A stretch of 20,000 nucleotides of DNA, from assembly GCA_018649885.1 (NCBI GenBank), contig JABIHA010000069.1:53977-73976 (forward strand). The letters are read 5' to 3'. Below the pieces are notes generated by a model. That model ran no database searches. It was not told the origin of the DNA and saw only the letters and a list, made by a program, of their open reading frames with translations. How positions within the stretch are numbered: position 1 is the first letter of the stretch; each line of letters opens with the position of its first letter. Below, piece after piece: positions 7,380-19,607 of this stretch. This stretch comes from Bacteriovoracaceae bacterium. Lineage in GTDB: Bacteria > Bdellovibrionota > Bacteriovoracia > Bacteriovoracales > Bacteriovoracaceae. The position numbers were made by a program, and so were the translations under genes.

Positions 7380-7991
7380 CTAACATCTTCTCCATTGAAT
7401 TTTGTAAATGATACCTGCATGAAAATCTGCTGAGTCCACAGTGGCCAGTGCATCATCTTTATTTCTATTTGACCTAACTAGCATACTGGCGTTGACACGC
7501 AAATTGACATCATCCCCACAACGAGACCATGACAGTGCTGCTATCCCGATTGGATTGTTTAAGAAATAATCATTGTCAAATCCACCTCTGAAAGTTCTTC
7601 TAAAACGAGGGCCTCTTGTTCCCGCAAAAAAGTATTCAGTACTAAATCGGGCCATGCCGCCAGGAGGAACCGAAACGAAACCACGATAATCCACTTGGAT
7701 GATAGAAATGCTAAGTCCTTGGGGAACATGAACTGGTACTGCAATATTACAGCCTTTTCTTGCGATTCGTCTTGCTCGTGGGCCACCACCTGCTTCAACA
7801 ACAAACGAGTCAAAAAGAAGACTCAGCTCTTTTCTGTCTGGGCTTAGTGTTGCTGATACCGATCCTCCAGGGCAACCTGTTCCGCCGTAACCTGGCAGAC
7901 CTAGTTGAATATCATTGGGGTCAGCAAAAGCAGATGTGCCAAAAGCACCAGCAAATACAAATAGTATTAATTTTTTAACAAAACTTTTCAT
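7380..7991 (-). CDS. DUF4360 domain secreted protein
   Basis: Signal peptide; YGGTGCP.GS, SPD..ELSLLFD.F, RK.CNI.VP..VPQG, DYRG, WS.CG, C-terminal WRRC. Confidence 0.9.
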   Translation of the reverse strand: MKSFVKKLILFVFAGAFGTSAFADPNDIQLGLPGYGGTGCPGGSVSATLSPDRKELSLLFDSFVVEAGGGPRARRIARKGCNIAVPVHVPQGLSISIIQVDYRGFVSVPPGGMARFSTEYFFAGTRGPRFRRTFRGGFDNDYFLNNPIGIAALSWSRCGDDVNLRVNASMLVRSNRNKDDALATVDSADFHAGIIYKIQWRRC

Positions 7992-8177
7992 ACAAACACT
8001 CCCTTAAATTTAAAGGCAATATTGCCTAACAATTATTTCCTGTATTGATCAATTTCCTAAGTGCTATCAATCATAAATTTTTATCTACATTTTTTTTAAA
8101 TCCTTTGCTATCAATTGCAAGTCGTATCGAGAGAATACAAAACAGAAAAGATATATTTAAAAAACTAGGAGTTGCAA

Positions 8178-8921
8178 ATGATAAATGGCATAAAAAATTA
8201 TAATCGTGGTACAAAAATAAAATGTATTCTATTAATTTTAACTTTATGTATTCCTGGGATTTCATATGCTCAGAATAAATTTACTTTTGATCAACCAGTA
8301 TTGAGAGGGACTGGTTGTCCCCGGGGAACCACATCAGTGATTATGAGTCCAGACAATCAGGAAATTACTTTGCTATTCGATAGATTTTCAGCAGAGGTTC
8401 CACAAGTAGATGGTGACAATGATAATGACTTAGTTACATCTGAAAATCCAGGTAGAGGCAATCGTCGAAATAAGAATCGTTCACATAAAGTATGTAATAT
8501 GATTGTCTCTGCCAGTCTTCCTGAAATGAGGAGAATCGTGGGACTAGGTATATCCATTGATTTTCGCGGTAGTACAATTATTGAAAACAATGCACGTGCA
8601 GTTTTTCGTGCAGTTTTACTTAAATGGAAAGGTCCCAGAGGAAAGCGTGGCAAACGTCATGAAGTTCATCGCCGCGCCTGGCGTGGCCAATTTGTTAATG
8701 ACAATTGGTTTATTAATCTGCATAAATTGACCAAGCTACGCAGTGGCTGTTCAAAAAAACGTGAACGAAAGGTAGTCTTTAAGCTGAGAAATATCATTAT
8801 GGCGTCTATACCTAAGCGAGTTGATGCAACTAACGCATCCGCTTTAATTACACTAGACTCTCAGGATATTTCTGGAAAAATGAAATTTAGGGTGAGGACA
8901 GCTCCATGTCGAAATCTCTAG
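8178..8921 (+). CDS. DUF4360-like secreted protein (divergent paralog)
   Basis: GTGCP.GT, SPD..EITLLFD.F, KVCN, DFRG, TLDSQD and a terminal Cys. ATG 8178 follows AGGAG. Confidence 0.8.
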   Translation: MINGIKNYNRGTKIKCILLILTLCIPGISYAQNKFTFDQPVLRGTGCPRGTTSVIMSPDNQEITLLFDRFSAEVPQVDGDNDNDLVTSENPGRGNRRNKNRSHKVCNMIVSASLPEMRRIVGLGISIDFRGSTIIENNARAVFRAVLLKWKGPRGKRGKRHEVHRRAWRGQFVNDNWFINLHKLTKLRSGCSKKRERKVVFKLRNIIMASIPKRVDATNASALITLDSQDISGKMKFRVRTAPCRNL

Positions 8922-10702: not shown

Positions 10703-12148
10703 TTATCTTAGGAGATCCCTTACATAATCTCCCATTCCACCGTTACCTGTTAGCAAGTTCCAATTGCTATCAAACATTCTTGGCCCCCAAAGGCTATCAA
10801 AGCACCAGGCGGTCCAAGAAAGTTGATTGTCGTCCATCCACTTTACAAAGGGAACGCCAAAACCTGACTGTGTTCCGCCTTGGTTGCTGCCTGTTTCAAA
10901 ACCCCATTCTGTTACGAACATGGGGAATTTTCTCATCGTGGGCCCAAAATTTCTCTCCCAGTCAGAGGCACTTTGATTGCTATAAACATGAGCAGTGTAA
11001 ATGATATTATTTCCTTGAACTGGATTGGTGGCCGCACCTGACATATGCGATGACCAAAATGGCCCCCCCACTATAATCAAATTATCTGGAGCTAAGGATC
11101 GAATCAAATTAACTGCAGGTTGAGCAATCTCATCTTTCCATGAATTCCAATTATCAGGATAGATAGGTTCATTAAAAATTTCGTAAATAACATAGGGGTT
11201 ATCCTTGTACTTAGGCGCCATATATGTCCAAAATTCCTTTACCCTTGGATAGAGTCCAGACCAATCACTGACATAATGTAAATCGATAATGGAATAAATT
11301 CCTTTGCTAGTGAGGTCATCCACTAGTGGTTTGACGTGATTGTTAAAGTACTTTTCTCCGCCATTTATTTCACTAAACCACCCCTCTGTTGGATAGTTTG
11401 GATCCCCTGGATGTACTGTAATACGTATAACTTGTGCATGAAATTCATTGACTGCTTTATCTACAACCCATTGGGCAGAGATTCCTGGCCTTTCATTGTC
11501 TTTGAGATTCAAGTGTTCTGGATCTGCGATATTAACTCCCTTTAACCTCAAGACTTGTCCCAGGGCCGTATAAATTTTATTTCCTGAAACAAAGGCGTGG
11601 CCCGCAGGATTGGGATTTACAGTTGGCACAGCTGTTGGTATGGGAGTCGGAATGGACGTAGGGACAGCTGTCGGTAGGGGAGTTGGAATGGACGTAGGGA
11701 CAGCTGTCGGCATGGGAGTGGGAACAGATGTCGGTATTGGTGTTGGCACAGGGGCCGAAACTGTGCCCTCTCCACTCAATGTTGTCTTCAGCTCTCGCCA
11801 AGTCCAATTTCTCCTCCTATAGTAGCCAATATGAAACTCAGCGTAGTAGTCTCTTTCGCTCTTTGGAGAAAAGGTAATACTATAGGTGCAGCTTTGTCCT
11901 TTTTTTAGAATGTACTCATTTTCCCTACAGGTCCCACCAGTTTTCGTAAAGGCGTCATCAGTAAACCAAAATTCGTCGATTCTAATTTTTCCTCTGCGCC
12001 TGCGATTTTTAATGGTAATTACTTGAGTTTTTGTACTTCCTATTTCAACTTTCCCAAAATCTTTAATTCCCGAAAAACTAATATCAAGTGCATAAAGATT
12101 AGGTAAAGTAAAAAATAGAAAACCTAAGATTGAAAAATATTTAATCAT
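10703..12148 (-). CDS. Secreted GH5 glycoside hydrolase with an N-terminal Ig-like (ASH/choice-of-anchor-D-like) domain and Pro/Thr linker
   Basis: Signal peptide; DFGKVEIG...ITIKN...GQSC...ITFSP...TLSGEG; a PT linker; GH5 motifs LKGVN, IIDLH, YEIFNEP (acid/base), AHVY, FVTEWG (nucleophile) and WTAW. Confidence 0.9.
   Translation of the reverse strand: MIKYFSILGFLFFTLPNLYALDISFSGIKDFGKVEIGSTKTQVITIKNRRRRGKIRIDEFWFTDDAFTKTGGTCRENEYILKKGQSCTYSITFSPKSERDYYAEFHIGYYRRRNWTWRELKTTLSGEGTVSAPVPTPIPTSVPTPMPTAVPTSIPTPLPTAVPTSIPTPIPTAVPTVNPNPAGHAFVSGNKIYTALGQVLRLKGVNIADPEHLNLKDNERPGISAQWVVDKAVNEFHAQVIRITVHPGDPNYPTEGWFSEINGGEKYFNNHVKPLVDDLTSKGIYSIIDLHYVSDWSGLYPRVKEFWTYMAPKYKDNPYVIYEIFNEPIYPDNWNSWKDEIAQPAVNLIRSLAPDNLIIVGGPFWSSHMSGAATNPVQGNNIIYTAHVYSNQSASDWERNFGPTMRKFPMFVTEWGFETGSNQGGTQSGFGVPFVKWMDDNQLSWTAWCFDSLWGPRMFDSNWNLLTGNGGMGDYVRDLLR
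11620..11755 (-). repeat. Coding 12-bp/36-bp tandem repeat encoding a (PTxx)n linker
   Basis: PTPIPTSVPTPMPTAVPTSIPTPLPTAVPTSIPTPIPTAVPT. GGAATGGACGTAGGGACAGCTGTCGG recurs 36 bp apart. Confidence 0.9.
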
Positions 12149-12690: not shown

Positions 12691-12737
12691 GACGGAACCC
12701 CCCCTATGGATTTGGTGTCATTCTTTGCGTGGAAATT

Positions 12738-14735
12738 TCACTTAACTGTTTTAAAAATCCCATTTTCAACTGTATGCCCATATGAAGGGACGATGATTTT
12801 TTTGATTTTCCCTTTTTGTCTGATGAGAATACTACCATCACCTTTGGCATTTAACTCTCTATTGGGACCATTGGGCCTAAGAAGTGGTATCTCGCCATCA
12901 AGTCCAAAATATTTTACTAGCTGATCTCGTCTGCCGATCAATTTTTCAGAAACAAATAAGGCTCCGTTGTACCCAAGCCCTGACGTTGAAAAGGCGTTGT
13001 GTAATTGCTTTTCAGTTAAGCTTGCGATTAAGCGGGTTGCCCATTTCAAATCATCAATCGTTAAATATCGAGTTAACACATTAAGTCTTTTGGAACGAAA
13101 AAGAATCAAGTCCTTTTTCACTTGCTCTATGGCCATTTTTTCTGAATCAAAACTCCCTAAAATCTTATCCTGAGATTCATCAATAAAAATACTCCAACCA
13201 AAGCGATTCATTTGCACTTCTAGGTCAGAAAGATTTTTGTAGGATTCACTAAGCTTTCTAAATAATTCAAATTTTGACTCTTTAAGCGCCACGCGAAGCT
13301 TAGTGGGGAGATAGCCACCTTCAATGAGTAAATCAACCTGAAGGTCATGGGGAGCAAGAGAATCCCCGGTATCGACTAAAACGTAGGAGAATTTTCTGGG
13401 AAGACTACCATCAGGAGTTTCTTTAAAGACAACTTTTAGGTTGTATCCAAAATTATCTACATTCCCAAGCCAACTATCAATTAACAAAAGTGCTCGTAGT
13501 TCACGGCGATCTTGATGAGACAGCATCATTCTATTCCAGCTAAAAACTCGTGTGTATCTCTTGGACCTCTTCTCTAGGTGGACTCCATATGTACGAATAA
13601 AACCAATTTTCCCTTTAAATTGCTCTTTAATTACATATGACTCTACTGGAGTCCCAAATACATTAGTTTTTTTAATTTTTGAGTGATCCATATAACGGTA
13701 AACATCAACAGCATCTTCAAATGCCACTTCTTCTCCGCTATCCAGAATAAAGCTTTTGTAATACAGTCTCAAATCAAAAATATTAAGCTGAATAACTTTA
13801 CTCTTTGATAAACTAAATAAATTAGGATGAAACTTCATTACGATTGAATCGCAATAGTAAGCTTTGTCAACATTATAGCCCATTGCTTTGTAGAGGATAT
13901 TGATTCCTGTTTCAATGTAGGCTTCTTGTTTGTGAAAAATGGGGATCTTGGGGTTTTGGTATCTCATTGCAAATTTTGCAGAGTATGTATCTTTGTCGAG
14001 GCCTTTTTTCGAGTCTTCAAAGAATGTATAAAGCTTTGCCCCGGGATTCCTACCACCACCATACTCAGGAATTATTTTTCTTTTCTTAAAATGAAAGATT
14101 CTATCTTTAGCACAGATCTCATCCTTTTTTTGGTGATAGTAATATGTTTCAAGTGACTTTTCTCTTTTTTTCCAAAATGCAGATTGCCTTGGGTTCGTTT
14201 TGTCATTTGTAGTTGTTGAATCAACTAAATTGAGAGCTTTCCCGAAAGGTTTAGAGGTCTTGATATTCAATGAATAGACTGCCCAATAAGGGTGGGCGCG
14301 TCCCTCAAAAAATGAATGCTTTATCCTTGGTCTTTTATCTACATAATAGGGCAATTGGTAAATCAGCTGTTGGTACAGACTCGCTAATTCAACTATTTGC
14401 ACTAAAATTTCATGCTTTTCCTCGTCGATGCTTTTTAAAAAAGAAAGTTTGTATTCATCATCCTTTAAAAGGGTCACACGCACAATCAATTCATCGAGTA
14501 CAATTTTTTGTTTTTTATTTAGGTGAATATCAAAGTTTTCGCGATCAGAAAGAAGTCTTTCGTAGAATTTTTTTAGAAAATGTCCTTCTCGCTCAAGTCC
14601 AGTTAACTTCTTGAGAGTGTAAATTTCGTACTTTCCATGAGCGACTAAGGGTAAATTAAATCTTTGCGTGGTCTTTTGCGATAAATCTGTACCAAAAGAT
14701 GTTGCAGAAATCAATAAACAGATTAGAAAATTCAT
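12738..14735 (-). CDS. Secreted hypothetical protein with atypical (HipA/PI3K/Fam20-like) kinase motifs
   Basis: Signal peptide; Gly-rich GGGRNP; AKF lysine; EAYIE; RRELRALLLIDSWLGNVDNFGYN; LVDTGDSL; DDLKWATRLIASLTEKQL. The kinase call rests on motif inspection only. Confidence 0.6.
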   Translation of the reverse strand: MNFLICLLISATSFGTDLSQKTTQRFNLPLVAHGKYEIYTLKKLTGLEREGHFLKKFYERLLSDRENFDIHLNKKQKIVLDELIVRVTLLKDDEYKLSFLKSIDEEKHEILVQIVELASLYQQLIYQLPYYVDKRPRIKHSFFEGRAHPYWAVYSLNIKTSKPFGKALNLVDSTTTNDKTNPRQSAFWKKREKSLETYYYHQKKDEICAKDRIFHFKKRKIIPEYGGGRNPGAKLYTFFEDSKKGLDKDTYSAKFAMRYQNPKIPIFHKQEAYIETGINILYKAMGYNVDKAYYCDSIVMKFHPNLFSLSKSKVIQLNIFDLRLYYKSFILDSGEEVAFEDAVDVYRYMDHSKIKKTNVFGTPVESYVIKEQFKGKIGFIRTYGVHLEKRSKRYTRVFSWNRMMLSHQDRRELRALLLIDSWLGNVDNFGYNLKVVFKETPDGSLPRKFSYVLVDTGDSLAPHDLQVDLLIEGGYLPTKLRVALKESKFELFRKLSESYKNLSDLEVQMNRFGWSIFIDESQDKILGSFDSEKMAIEQVKKDLILFRSKRLNVLTRYLTIDDLKWATRLIASLTEKQLHNAFSTSGLGYNGALFVSEKLIGRRDQLVKYFGLDGEIPLLRPNGPNRELNAKGDGSILIRQKGKIKKIIVPSYGHTVENGIFKTVK

Positions 14736-16402
14736 TACAGCTGTCCTTTGTAAAATGGATCAATTTTGATTCCTAAATCAGATGGTTTAAAAGTGCTATA
14801 TTTAATCTTGATCCCCCTAGAAGGGATTTTATAAAAACGAACCGACCAACCAGGTTGATCTATATTTATTGCGGGATACTCTTTATTAACACTTTTTATT
14901 TTAATACTTACACTTTGTTGAAGCGGTGACTTATTAATCACTACTACTGTCAATTTATTTGTGGTCTCACTGAGCAATGTGGCGTATACGTTCACCCATT
15001 TGTTGGATTCACTTTTTACATCTAAAACACTTCCAACAAAATTATGAGTGAATTCGGAATACAAATCATATAGAGCTGTAGGTCTATCATTATTAATTAA
15101 AACCCAAGGTAACTTGTATGGGTCATATGTATTCAAAAATGCTCTTCCAAAAAATGAAAACCCTCCTGAGGCAAGCCTACCTATTAGATCGGCCATATAA
15201 AGAGGTCTAACTATTGGGTGATAACCAAAGCTTGAATCATAGGAGTCAAGGGCAAACTCAGAAAGGGCCAATTTAGCCTCAGGGTAATACCCCTTAACCC
15301 AACTCTTCATACGACCCAATATATTGGGTGAAAAATTGCGATAGGAGCTGATATCAATTGTATTGGTAAAATTGGGGTCATCAAGAACCCTTGTATGGTT
15401 AAGCATTTGTTGAACTTTTTGCTTTCCATTTTGGTGTGAATTAATACTATTAACATCAGAAATTTTAGTTCTAAAGTTTGGGTAATAATGAATACTTGCG
15501 TAGTCTAATAGTTTATACCCATTGGGATTTAATGCTTGGTCTTTTTCGATTTCAGATAGTCTTTGGAAGAAATAGGGTAGAAAGTGATCAAATTCTCCAT
15601 TTTTCCCGTAGTGACACGAAATTTGTCCCCAAACTTCTGTCCATTCACAATCTTTACTCATATTCCCCGTCTGCCAATCATAGTAACTAATAGAGATCTC
15701 AGGTCCCCATAATTTAATATCATCCGCATTTCCACTAACTTCCTCTTGTGCTGCTCTCATGGCCATCGCATACTTAACATACCGATCAATATATTGATCA
15801 GCATTTAGTGGCTCTTTAAATGGATAGATATCGCTGTGTGTGTCCTTCCACTGTAATGGCTCATTTCCCATGCAAAAATGTTTTACTTTTAACCCTAATT
15901 TACCGTTAAGGAATTTTACAAGCTCAGACGCAAAAGATTCATCTGCAAAATCTCTGAGGACATAGCCACTTGGAGTTCTCTCTTCATCTGGTAGTCGTTT
16001 CCTAACTGCTTTTCCCAAAAAATTAACCTGAAATATCGGCTCAACATTGTGCTGTTTAAAATACTGAGCGAATTCTTCAAAAGGGATACTCTTTTTAGGG
16101 ACATCTGAAGGAATATACAAAAAACCATTCTTCCAATTAAATCCATCATAGAGGTTTCCGCCTATTCGCACCATCCCTAGTCCCAAGCCCTTTAGAACAG
16201 AAGAGCTCGGGTTGGGAACAAAGTTTGAAATTTGGCTACCGTAAAACTTGGAATTAATTTTATGGGCATTTTTTGCAGAATTAAGATCTACTGTGATTCT
16301 AATGTCAGCAGCTTCATTAAAACCTTTTGCTATTGGTGCATAACCTTCGGTCACAGCGAATACATTAGCTGAAATTAGCATTAAAAACCAAGTCATTTTC
16401 AT
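14735..16402 (-). CDS. Secreted glycoside hydrolase, GH44-like
   Basis: INSKFYG, RIGGN..DGFNW.NG, MGNEP.QW..TH.DI, KLWGPE, LLDYASIHYYP, RMKSWVKGYYP.AKLALSEF, and a C-terminal beta-sandwich (VYAT...TVVVINK). Confidence 0.82.
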   Translation of the reverse strand: MKMTWFLMLISANVFAVTEGYAPIAKGFNEAADIRITVDLNSAKNAHKINSKFYGSQISNFVPNPSSSVLKGLGLGMVRIGGNLYDGFNWKNGFLYIPSDVPKKSIPFEEFAQYFKQHNVEPIFQVNFLGKAVRKRLPDEERTPSGYVLRDFADESFASELVKFLNGKLGLKVKHFCMGNEPLQWKDTHSDIYPFKEPLNADQYIDRYVKYAMAMRAAQEEVSGNADDIKLWGPEISISYYDWQTGNMSKDCEWTEVWGQISCHYGKNGEFDHFLPYFFQRLSEIEKDQALNPNGYKLLDYASIHYYPNFRTKISDVNSINSHQNGKQKVQQMLNHTRVLDDPNFTNTIDISSYRNFSPNILGRMKSWVKGYYPEAKLALSEFALDSYDSSFGYHPIVRPLYMADLIGRLASGGFSFFGRAFLNTYDPYKLPWVLINNDRPTALYDLYSEFTHNFVGSVLDVKSESNKWVNVYATLLSETTNKLTVVVINKSPLQQSVSIKIKSVNKEYPAINIDQPGWSVRFYKIPSRGIKIKYSTFKPSDLGIKIDPFYKGQL

Positions 16403-17367
16403 TGATCTTCCTTTTCAACTTCACCAAGATCGAAAATCACCTCTTCACCCGCGAACTCATCTACTCCACATGTATTTAATGTGTCATCATATCCAACACT
16501 CATTGATCTAAAAGGGTTCTCGGCCATGGGATCAACTGCTATGGCAGGATAATTTGTTTTATAATAGTTTAAAATACCGACCCCAACATGTTCTAGTGTT
16601 CCACAAAGAGATGGTTTGTAAACTTCGTAGTAATCTTTAAAGAGCGTCTGTTGTTTTCCAAGGATAATTGTCTCTCCCGGCTGAATTCGCGTTGTTAAAT
16701 TTCGATTGACAGATTTCACAGTTCCTCTTGCAACTGATTTCATTGAGTTAAAAGTTGGACCCATGTCAAATAGGTTCATAAGACTTAGTCTGAGGAAAAA
16801 TGAAGTTGATTTTCCTTCGCTTCTATATACTGAATTAATCACCTGCTCAGAAACATTGACAATCCTTTCTGTTGAAGTTGAATTGTGAATTAGACCTGTC
16901 AATTTTTCAGTTCTAAACCTTTGAAAGCAATCTAGACTTGTATCCTTACTTTTTTGGAAAACTAGCTTTTTATATACACGAAACTCTTTTGAGGCCGTTT
17001 GGGCCAATTCACCATTTTTTTGCTTTCTTACAACTATAATTGTATTTACTGCAAATTGAAGATCATCACTAACCGGGTGAACCGAAATTTTAAATGAATC
17101 TTTCTTTGTTTCAAAAGTTTTATATTTTTCAAGACTAATATCGTTATAGCCATTATTAGAATAGGTAACGACAAAGGTGTCGTCTTCATCAGCACCTAAA
17201 ATCCTGAATTTAATCTTCTCTTTTTCTTTTGGACTAAAAATGGCCTTTGGGTATTTACAAAGAGCATAATCATGACCTTCAATTTCTGAGTCAATAACAA
17301 TTTCGAGTTTAGCATACACATTCTCAGTAATAGCGACTAAGAATAGAAATAAAGTAAGTTTTTTCAT
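16399..17367 (-). CDS. Secreted protein with a putative aerolysin/ETX-MTX2-like C-terminal module
   Basis: Signal peptide; HNSTSTERIVNVSEQVINS, an alternating hydrophobic hairpin TSFFLRLSLMNLFDMGPTFNS, a Ser/Thr-rich return strand, then TRIQPGET. The CDS is secure; the fold is inferred. Confidence 0.55.
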   Translation of the reverse strand: MKKLTLFLFLVAITENVYAKLEIVIDSEIEGHDYALCKYPKAIFSPKEKEKIKFRILGADEDDTFVVTYSNNGYNDISLEKYKTFETKKDSFKISVHPVSDDLQFAVNTIIVVRKQKNGELAQTASKEFRVYKKLVFQKSKDTSLDCFQRFRTEKLTGLIHNSTSTERIVNVSEQVINSVYRSEGKSTSFFLRLSLMNLFDMGPTFNSMKSVARGTVKSVNRNLTTRIQPGETIILGKQQTLFKDYYEVYKPSLCGTLEHVGVGILNYYKTNYPAIAVDPMAENPFRSMSVGYDDTLNTCGVDEFAGEEVIFDLGEVEKEDQ

Positions 17368-17388
17368 TTTTTCTCCAACTTTTAAAAA

Positions 17389-18435
17389 CTAATATTTATC
17401 TGGTTCAACCAGGTTCATCTCATAGTGTTTTAGGCGCTCAATTACAGAAATTTCACCGTTCTTGGATAAGAAACCACATTCATTGGCACTGTATTTTGAA
17501 AACTTTGAATCAATTAGAGTTAATACTTCGACAATGACTCCTGACTCCTCAGGAAGCAATGTAAAGGTTGATTTTGTGGAAAGAGTTTTCTCCAAATCCA
17601 TTATTAAAGAATTTGTTTTAGCTGTATTCACAAAAAAAGATATGGCAAACCCTTTTGAATATAGATTCCCCATAGAGAAAATATCTTTTGTATTAGGCAT
17701 AGGGTAGAAGTTTTTTAGAATTCCTCCTCCGGCCCCTCCTCCTCCAGCTCTATCATAAGTGTCTGCAGACATTAGAATAAGGCCTACGGAACTTCCTTGA
17801 GCTATTTCAGCAGAAAGGCTACGCTCAGTTGAGGATTCTTTTTCTTTGCTTGATTCATCGCTAATATAATCCTCGTAAGTGATTTCTAGTGCCTCATCAC
17901 TTTGGCCGTTATGGTACAGTTTTGAGACAACAGAAGTCTGTTCACTAATCAAACTGTCAAAATTTCTCTTTTTAATTAATATTTCATGGCCTTGCTTTAT
18001 AAAAGAAAATGAAAAGGATTTCTTTAACTGTTTTCTTGTCCCTTTAACTTTAAGAAGGATTTGAATATGTGAAATATCTTTTTTTGATTTCACTTTGAAT
18101 TCATTCATTCCAATAGTTAAACGATACAATCTTCCCACCAGGCAATTTTTCACACATTTAAACTGAGGCGTAGAGTCAAAGTATAAAATTCTCGTTTTAT
18201 TTTTATTTATTTGAATTTGGTAGGCTCCTATGGAGATAATCCGTCCTAGACGTTGTAGCTCTTTTTGAGAGAACTTCACTACCAAATCGATATTTTCTTT
18301 TAAATGTGGATAAATAAAATATGACGAACTATTTTCACATTTAATTTGATCGCTTTCAGACCCAAAGATCATCACCTCTACAGGGAATGCTGAGCTCGAA
18401 ACAGTAATGAATAGAATTAAAAATAAGTATTTCAT
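17389..18435 (-). CDS. Secreted protein, paralog of 16399-17367
   Basis: Signal peptide; KLYHN...ITYEDYIS..S..S; TFTLLPEESGVI..LTL...Y...CG.L...G aligns without gaps to the neighbour. Confidence 0.55.
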   Translation of the reverse strand: MKYLFLILFITVSSSAFPVEVMIFGSESDQIKCENSSSYFIYPHLKENIDLVVKFSQKELQRLGRIISIGAYQIQINKNKTRILYFDSTPQFKCVKNCLVGRLYRLTIGMNEFKVKSKKDISHIQILLKVKGTRKQLKKSFSFSFIKQGHEILIKKRNFDSLISEQTSVVSKLYHNGQSDEALEITYEDYISDESSKEKESSTERSLSAEIAQGSSVGLILMSADTYDRAGGGGAGGGILKNFYPMPNTKDIFSMGNLYSKGFAISFFVNTAKTNSLIMDLEKTLSTKSTFTLLPEESGVIVEVLTLIDSKFSKYSANECGFLSKNGEISVIERLKHYEMNLVEPDKY

Positions 18436-19238
18436 AGATAACTCACCCTTATGGAATTTTTTACTATTTTTTCATATGAGGGGATTGCCAACATCTTTAA
18501 GGCAGTACTCAAGGCAATTAATAGTAAAAGGCTTAACGAATTTCTGTGTCTAATATAATATAAATCGTAAATGATCTTTTTTTCTGCGATTGAATCGTAT
18601 TCAGCAACAATTTGAGCAAGGCCTGTGATGCCAGGTTTAACTAATTCTCTATATTTGTAGCCATATACAATTTGATTGTAACTTAAAGTAAACTCTGGTC
18701 TTTCGGGTCTTGGCCCAATGAGATTCATATCAGATTTTAAGACATTAATTAATTGCGGGATTTCATCAAGATGTGTTTTTCTGAGAAATCGTCCAAACTC
18801 TGTTACCCTTGGATCTCCTTCCCAAGAAAGGACTGCACCCGTTTTTTCTTCTGCATCTGTATACATTGTTCTAAATTTAATGACTTTGAATATCTTGCCT
18901 TTTTTTCCAACTCTTTTTTGAGTGAAAAAAAGAGGAGCAGTTGGGTTATCAACTTTCATGGCAATCGCAATGATAATTGCGATCGGCAAAAATAGTAAGA
19001 AGAGAATGGTACTTGCCAATAACTGAATGTACTCTCCAGCCTTGACACTTAATTTCCTTTCTAGGTTTTTAGCCTCGGTCTTTAAAAAATTAGCATTTTC
19101 GATCACAGAGAGATTATGAAAAGTGGCATTTTCATCAATTCCAAATGCCTCCTCAAGAGATTCAAATCCTAATCCCACACCATTAAACTCTGAGCTATCA
19201 AGTTTTTTAAAACTTACCTGGTTTTCATTAAACATCAT
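18432..19238 (-). CDS. Bacterial sugar transferase (priming phosphoglycosyl transferase, WbaP/WcaJ catalytic domain)
   Basis: One hydrophobic helix; FFTQKRVGKKGK.F..IKFRTM, DPRVT..GRFLRKTHLDEIPQL.NV, GPRPE, VKPGITGLAQ, YDLYY. Confidence 0.95.
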   Translation of the reverse strand: MMFNENQVSFKKLDSSEFNGVGLGFESLEEAFGIDENATFHNLSVIENANFLKTEAKNLERKLSVKAGEYIQLLASTILFLLFLPIAIIIAIAMKVDNPTAPLFFTQKRVGKKGKIFKVIKFRTMYTDAEEKTGAVLSWEGDPRVTEFGRFLRKTHLDEIPQLINVLKSDMNLIGPRPERPEFTLSYNQIVYGYKYRELVKPGITGLAQIVAEYDSIAEKKIIYDLYYIRHRNSLSLLLLIALSTALKMLAIPSYEKIVKNSIRVSYL

Positions 19239-19532: not shown

Positions 19533-19607
19533 TTAATTTGTTAATTTGTTAATTTGTTAATTTGTTAATTTGTTAATTTGTTAATTTGTTAATTTGTTAA
19601 TTTGTTA
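19533..19607. repeat. Octamer SSR (TTAATTTG)x9 plus TTA
   Basis: Nine exact copies counted, with ACGTT at both junctions. Confidence 0.95.

Follow-up and report, generated by a model that had tools for sequence, protein, structure and literature searches.

Paired exported paralogs with a predicted aerolysin-type beta core in polysaccharide operons of Bdellovibrionota

The 20,000-nucleotide stretch of DNA analysed here, called the window, lies at positions 53,977 to 73,976 of contig JABIHA010000069.1 from a Bacteriovoracaceae bacterium (assembly GCA_018649885.1). The genome that holds it is labelled G000; G004, G116, G148 and G469 are labels of other genomes compared. The original prediction had placed two adjacent genes between positions 16399 and 18435, and both are found there as open reading frames (ORFs) on the minus strand. 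The upstream gene, U (17389-18435), encodes the 348-residue protein P0002, and the downstream gene, D (16399-17367), encodes the 322-residue protein P0001. Neither matches any family in Pfam or NCBIfam, and neither has a lipobox. In the models, D comprises a signal peptide, an Ig-like domain (residues 20-134) and a predicted aerolysin-type pore-forming module (about 140-301), and U a signal peptide, an Ig-like domain (about 17-148), a long beta domain and an extended Gly-rich hairpin tip. The gene order is priming glycosyltransferase, U, D, GH44 glycoside hydrolase and a 665-residue exported protein.

U and D had been proposed to be paralogs because a 38-residue segment of D (residues 225-262; 16582-16695, minus strand), which contains the P230 turn and C255-G256, aligns with a segment of U (residues 290-327; 17455-17568, minus strand). 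Both segments were located, exactly the ten listed residues are common to both, and the L.HN motif said to precede them occurs as LIHN at D 159 and LYHN at U 173. By itself this likeness is near chance (BLASTP E = 0.13); in a shuffle control its score was reached in 15 of 300 cases and its identity count in 239 of 300. As the match is weak, the paralogy rests on profile searches, which uphold it. A profile of 26 relatives that included neither G000 upstream gene recovers both from the 9308 ORFs of the genome (E 7.4e-9 and 1.9e-9), the next-best match reaching only E 0.065. With a 51-sequence profile built without G000 sequences, the four G000 genes rank first. Alignment of a U-only with a D-only profile extends over 274 columns with a probability of 97.7% and E 2.3e-12. 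By profile comparison, U and D are established as paralogs over their whole length. Their N-terminal halves do differ in sequence, as had been stated, but not in predicted fold, both being modelled as Ig-like sandwiches.

Every structural match of the modelled C-terminal domain is a pore-forming protein. The neighbors are lysenin (5ec5), Dln1 (4zno/4znq), lamprey LIP (5zu4) and aerolysin (9fml), and LIP and Dln1 are among the top ten for each of two separately built models. The lysenin match spans residues 9-154; PMC4823867 assigns the pore-forming module to the N-terminal part of lysenin and gives the barrel-forming region of the family as 75 ± 8 residues with 23-44% Ser/Thr. An aerolysin-family oligomer with a concentric double beta-barrel and a membrane pore is described in PMC6572795. 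Like the proteins of that family, U and D have a separate binding-type domain in addition to the predicted module. Measured between the chosen anchors N162 and P230 (D numbering), the hairpin segment is 69-77 residues long in 32 D-type proteins, and its Ser/Thr content averages 24% (range 16-30) against 15% elsewhere, with enrichment in 32 of 32; these counts omit two single-gene proteins. Limited to its modelled strands, the segment of D is 61 residues long (168-228; 16684-16866, minus strand). This predicted barrel-forming stem, with 23% Ser/Thr, is modelled as two long strands, 168-186 and 210-228, flanking a poorly ordered loop. A membrane hairpin is predicted from the sequence at residues 188-211 (16735-16806, minus strand), a low-confidence part of the model, where F190, L192, L194 and L196, and F200, M202, P204 and F206, are interleaved with polar residues. 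The equivalent position in U is an unmodelled stretch of 90 residues (194-283; 17587-17856, minus strand), which compared with D has gained or kept some 45-50 extra residues rich in Gly.

The published loop length thus holds for D and is not fixed in U-type proteins, where the segment varies from 53 to 120 residues with a mean of 15% Ser/Thr (23 proteins) and is short in one clade (53 residues). P0001 (23-26%) and P0002 (23%) both lie within the published Ser/Thr range. Amphipathic alternation, judged with no shuffle control, is clean in P0001 (190-196 and 200-206), partial in the D-type average and irregular in U-type proteins. The Pfam models Aerolysin (PF01117) and ETX_MTX2 (PF03318) match neither P0001 nor P0002 nor any of 25 aligned members; they find nothing in G000 at E <= 10 and nothing in 301 genomes of the phylum. 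CDCL/MACPF proteins carry helical clusters that refold into hairpins, and Bin-type binary toxins have an N-terminal beta-trefoil. The model of D has no helix of four or more residues, and the Ig-like N-terminal domain makes the suggested analogy with Bin toxins a poor one. The structural matches and the hairpin anatomy support, at moderate strength, an aerolysin-type beta core. D may be the barrel former, under constraint, and U a partner with a free tip. A conserved hairpin of membrane type would imply insertion into some membrane.

The two genes lie in polysaccharide operons. The 28 loci tallied consist of 23 complete multi-gene blocks, three contig-end fragments and two single-gene loci; a polysaccharide gene is found within 1.5 kb in all 23 blocks and all three fragments, and at neither single-gene locus. 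Twenty blocks are of the synthase type, with a GT2 gene (seen in 19 of 20), U, D and then a GH113-like/DUF2334 gene (also seen in 19 of 20), usually together with WecB and GH113. The remaining three are of the Wzx/Wzy type and adjoin GH44. The pair therefore occurs in two unrelated polysaccharide systems, NfrB-like synthase operons and Wzx/Wzy clusters, with a fixed U-then-D order and in the same operon slot across at least four families. Because the loci are related, the linkage is not evidence from 23 independent events; it represents two contexts and long retention. An NfrB-like GT2 occurs in 14 genomes of the class, 12 of which carry the pair family. G004 (99% complete) has the barrel, GT2, GH113, GH26, DUF2334 and WecB genes and lacks the pair, and G148 has only the barrel and GT2. 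The pair-less operon of G004 encodes a 585-residue protein (L127:13710-15464) that has no Pfam match and is a candidate functional replacement of the pair. The gene after D opens with a domain resembling GH113. In all 14 copies examined, Gly stands where the IGAEL motif has its Glu, a catalytic residue, as read from printed motifs, the aligner having gapped at that site. The GH113-like domain is missing from the G004 operon. The GH44 of the window retains its NEP and SEF motifs.

At the window locus, the stop of the priming glycosyltransferase gene (Bac_transf, E 7e-56; 18432-19238, minus strand) overlaps the start of U by four bases, and the start of the GH44 gene (E 2e-15, with a weak EpsB match; 14735-16402, minus strand) overlaps the stop of D by four bases. 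The gene of the 665-residue protein (12738-14735, minus strand) ends the five-gene block, which is duplicated: the copies at window 12736-19028 and at G000:C84:80145-86438 are 72.7% identical in nucleotides over 6.3 kb. The C84 copy has a Wzx-like gene, an O-antigen-ligase/Wzy-like gene, glycosyltransferases and deacetylases as neighbors; the window copy, near the contig end, is detached from the remaining genes of the polysaccharide cluster. The 665-residue protein, 72% identical between the copies, has zero matches in Pfam, NCBIfam and PDB; its Asp/Asn-rich motifs presumably recall CotH/HipA-type kinases, a candidate likeness.

D is conserved like the operon enzymes, its Ig domain included. 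In 36 pairs from nine synthase-type loci, mean identity is 49.6% for GT2, 47.4% for WecB, 44.7% for D, 41.8% for GH+DUF2334 and 27.0% for U, and U is less conserved than GT2 in every pair. Within D the Ig domain has 41% identity and the stem with the hairpin 52%. Between the two G000 copies D and GH44 are each 77% identical, and U is 55% identical.

Word-indexed searches recovered almost no relatives. An exhaustive search with D gave 14 matches, two of which were repeat proteins and were discarded. D alone has matches in 12 of 238 class genomes and the profile in 16, three of these being spurious signal-region matches; phylum-wide, the occurrence is patchy (13 of 401 genomes). A synthase-type D alignment found 19 loci among named genomes, all labelled as metagenome-assembled, 18 as Bdellovibrionota-type taxa and one as a 'Proteobacteria bacterium'. 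Zero family matches were found in the plasmids and viral contigs searched. A tree of 57 proteins, from a quick search only, mostly places upstream and downstream copies in separate groups. Exceptions lie on long branches nearer the D group: both upstream genes of G000 and the gene that leads the G116 triplet. A U-only profile nonetheless matches those two G000 genes and no others, weakly (E about 5e-4). The conserved order and the largely separate clades support a two-component system.

Several side observations accompany these loci. In G469, GT2 and U are joined in one 855-residue ORF (L078:10104-12668), with an internal Met ahead of the signal-like stretch of U. The single family genes at L083:9819-14461 and L088:5871-10597 close a conserved four-gene run of uncharacterised genes, the others encoding 611-647, 141-149 and 416-417 residues, with no glycan genes nearby. 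Elsewhere in the window are two divergent DUF4360 genes (7380-7991, minus strand, and 8172-8921, plus strand) and, downstream of the block, a GH5 cellulase gene (10703-12148, minus strand) whose product has an N-terminal Ig-like domain and a Pro/Thr linker encoded with a 36-base repeat (11628-11724). Upstream of the operon, a perfect 8-base tandem repeat extends for 9.4 copies (19533-19607).

By combining these observations, it is possible to propose how the pair might work. U and D would be exported and would then assemble into a two-component ring in the outer membrane of the producing cell. D would provide the membrane barrel through its Ser/Thr-rich stem of fixed length and its hydrophobic hairpin, with U, its tip variable, as partner or platform. 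The glycan could then be held by the Ig domains together with the neighboring protein of glycoside-hydrolase fold, the ring serving as an accessory anchor and not as the main exporter. That the ring anchors surface polysaccharide in this way is the preferred reading, though it stays somewhat short of an even chance. An anchor fits best because the pair is dispensable, usable with two polymer systems and always beside a gene of glycoside-hydrolase fold. Stated more broadly, as an aerolysin-type pore former domesticated in Bdellovibrionota, whose heteromeric ring in the cell's own outer membrane would be an anchor or a channel for polysaccharide and portable between synthase-type and Wzx/Wzy systems, the proposal comes close to an even chance.

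The original prediction pointed to a signature like that of pore-forming toxins, and a secreted two-component toxin against competitors, prey or grazers, co-expressed with the polysaccharide, is unlikely but deserves serious consideration. Of the two subunits, one would act as platform while the other formed the barrel; the co-expression would serve biofilm defence, or the glycan locus would give self-protection. That all C-domain matches are pore-forming proteins, that Atlas features point to aerolysin clusters (0.76-0.81, a lead only), that neither protein has a lipobox, and that the pair is patchy in the phylum and absent from the G004 operon all agree with a toxin. There are also precedents: in CDCL pairs one subunit serves as platform on the membrane (PMC11169675), and BSAP genes lie beside glycan genes of target replacement (PMC4999547). 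The pair nevertheless occupies the middle of the operon, flanked by synthase and hydrolase-fold genes, and stops overlap with starts. A fixed slot of this kind and the enzyme-like conservation of D, Ig domain included, fit a toxin poorly. Also against it, the plasmids and viral contigs gave no match, and the ORF maps (ORFs of at least 100 residues) show no small lipoprotein gene directly adjoining the pair. The beta core of the earlier proposal stands at moderate strength, whereas its toxin framing overlooks the constant polysaccharide setting and the conservation of D.

The ring might instead be built in the periplasm and inserted from inside into the outer membrane as an export conduit, the polymer or its hydrolase passing through the Ser/Thr-lined barrel and the variable tip of U lying at the cell surface. 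Wza (PF02563) is not found in G000 (92% complete) at E <= 0.001, with the control positive in 4 of 14, and the 585-residue protein of G004 might replace the pair. The barrels of the NfrB-like operons (L072:13825-14568 and equivalents), about 250 residues and without a Pfam or NCBIfam match, are too short for the TPR part described for NfrA. Such a conduit is improbable, its role being weakened by the other exporters encoded at these loci. A probable outer-membrane barrel, recognised by its length, its alternation and an aromatic residue at the end and matching no family, is present in 16 of the 20 blocks of synthase type and also on C84; contig ends cut the other four blocks. The C25 cluster of G116 holds a Wza-like domain alongside three family paralogs. 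An 835-residue ORF of G116 (L075:14937-17441) joins a Wzx-like flippase to a Wza-like export domain, by fusion or sequence error. Polysaccharide exporters are usually system-specific, whereas the pair serves two systems.

A matrix scaffold that polymerises through its long strands and cross-links polysaccharide outside the cell, with no membrane entry, would agree with the Ig-like N-terminal domains, with Vibrio RbmA among the Ig-type structural matches and with the short U hairpin of one clade, and has a small chance of being correct. Convergent resemblance, with the C-domain having some other elongated beta fold and the protein being an accessory to polysaccharide synthesis, is doubtful in view of LIP and Dln1 ranking high for both models, of the agreement of stem length and Ser/Thr content with published values, and of the lysenin match lying in what PMC4823867 calls the pore-forming module.

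The anchoring ring, if real, would represent an envelope component of a new class, made from a toxin fold: a bacterial weapon fold used as an envelope building block, a new route of polysaccharide anchoring or export and a natural two-subunit nanopore. If the pair is a toxin, glycan loci would be home to a two-component aerolysin-like family that has so far gone unrecognised. In either case it is small, defined and directly testable. A literature search found no report of such a system. U and D represent at least a new two-component family that resembles aerolysin-type proteins and matches none of their sequence-family models, and they may be an envelope component of a new kind.

Several known systems can be compared with the pair. 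Aerolysin-family proteins share with it the extra binding-type domain and the long beta module with a loop between long Ser/Thr-rich strands, the stem of D being about 70 residues; U and D differ in having no sequence match, an Ig-like N-terminal domain, a very variable U tip and an arrangement as pair or triplet inside polysaccharide operons. The CDCL toxins of Bacteroidota (PMC11169675) are also two paralogs, platform and pore builder, and offer a possible model for U and D. They have the CDC/MACPF fold, a highly variable binding domain, unlike D, and an immunity lipoprotein; the latter two are not seen for D. BSAP-2 of Bacteroides uniformis (PMC4999547) is likewise a pore-forming protein whose gene lies beside glycan biosynthesis genes. 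It is a single MACPF protein, strain-variable and beside the replaced target, whereas the U/D pair is fixed mid-operon across families. The relatives' operons resemble the Nfr system of E. coli (NfrB, NfrA and WecB; PMC8669472) in holding WecB and an NfrB-like GT2 whose match (E 4e-94) falls short of the cut-off, but their GT2 has 473 residues against 723 positions of the NfrB model, and their barrel of about 250 residues has no TPR. The window's own locus is of the Wzx/Wzy type, with a priming glycosyltransferase and GH44; G000 has no NfrB-like GT2 at E <= 1e-30, and the locus thus lacks the NfrB-type synthase and TPR-barrel NfrA that define an Nfr system. In the toad beta-gamma-CAT complex, BmALP1 and BmALP3 are reportedly aerolysin-family paralogs, one regulating the other, that serve the animal's own physiology; they are endolysosomal and are not known to be tied to polysaccharide synthesis. 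Wzi, HfaA/B/D and CsgG reside in the outer membrane and hold a surface polymer or let it pass, as the U/D ring might; their folds are unrelated to those of U and D.
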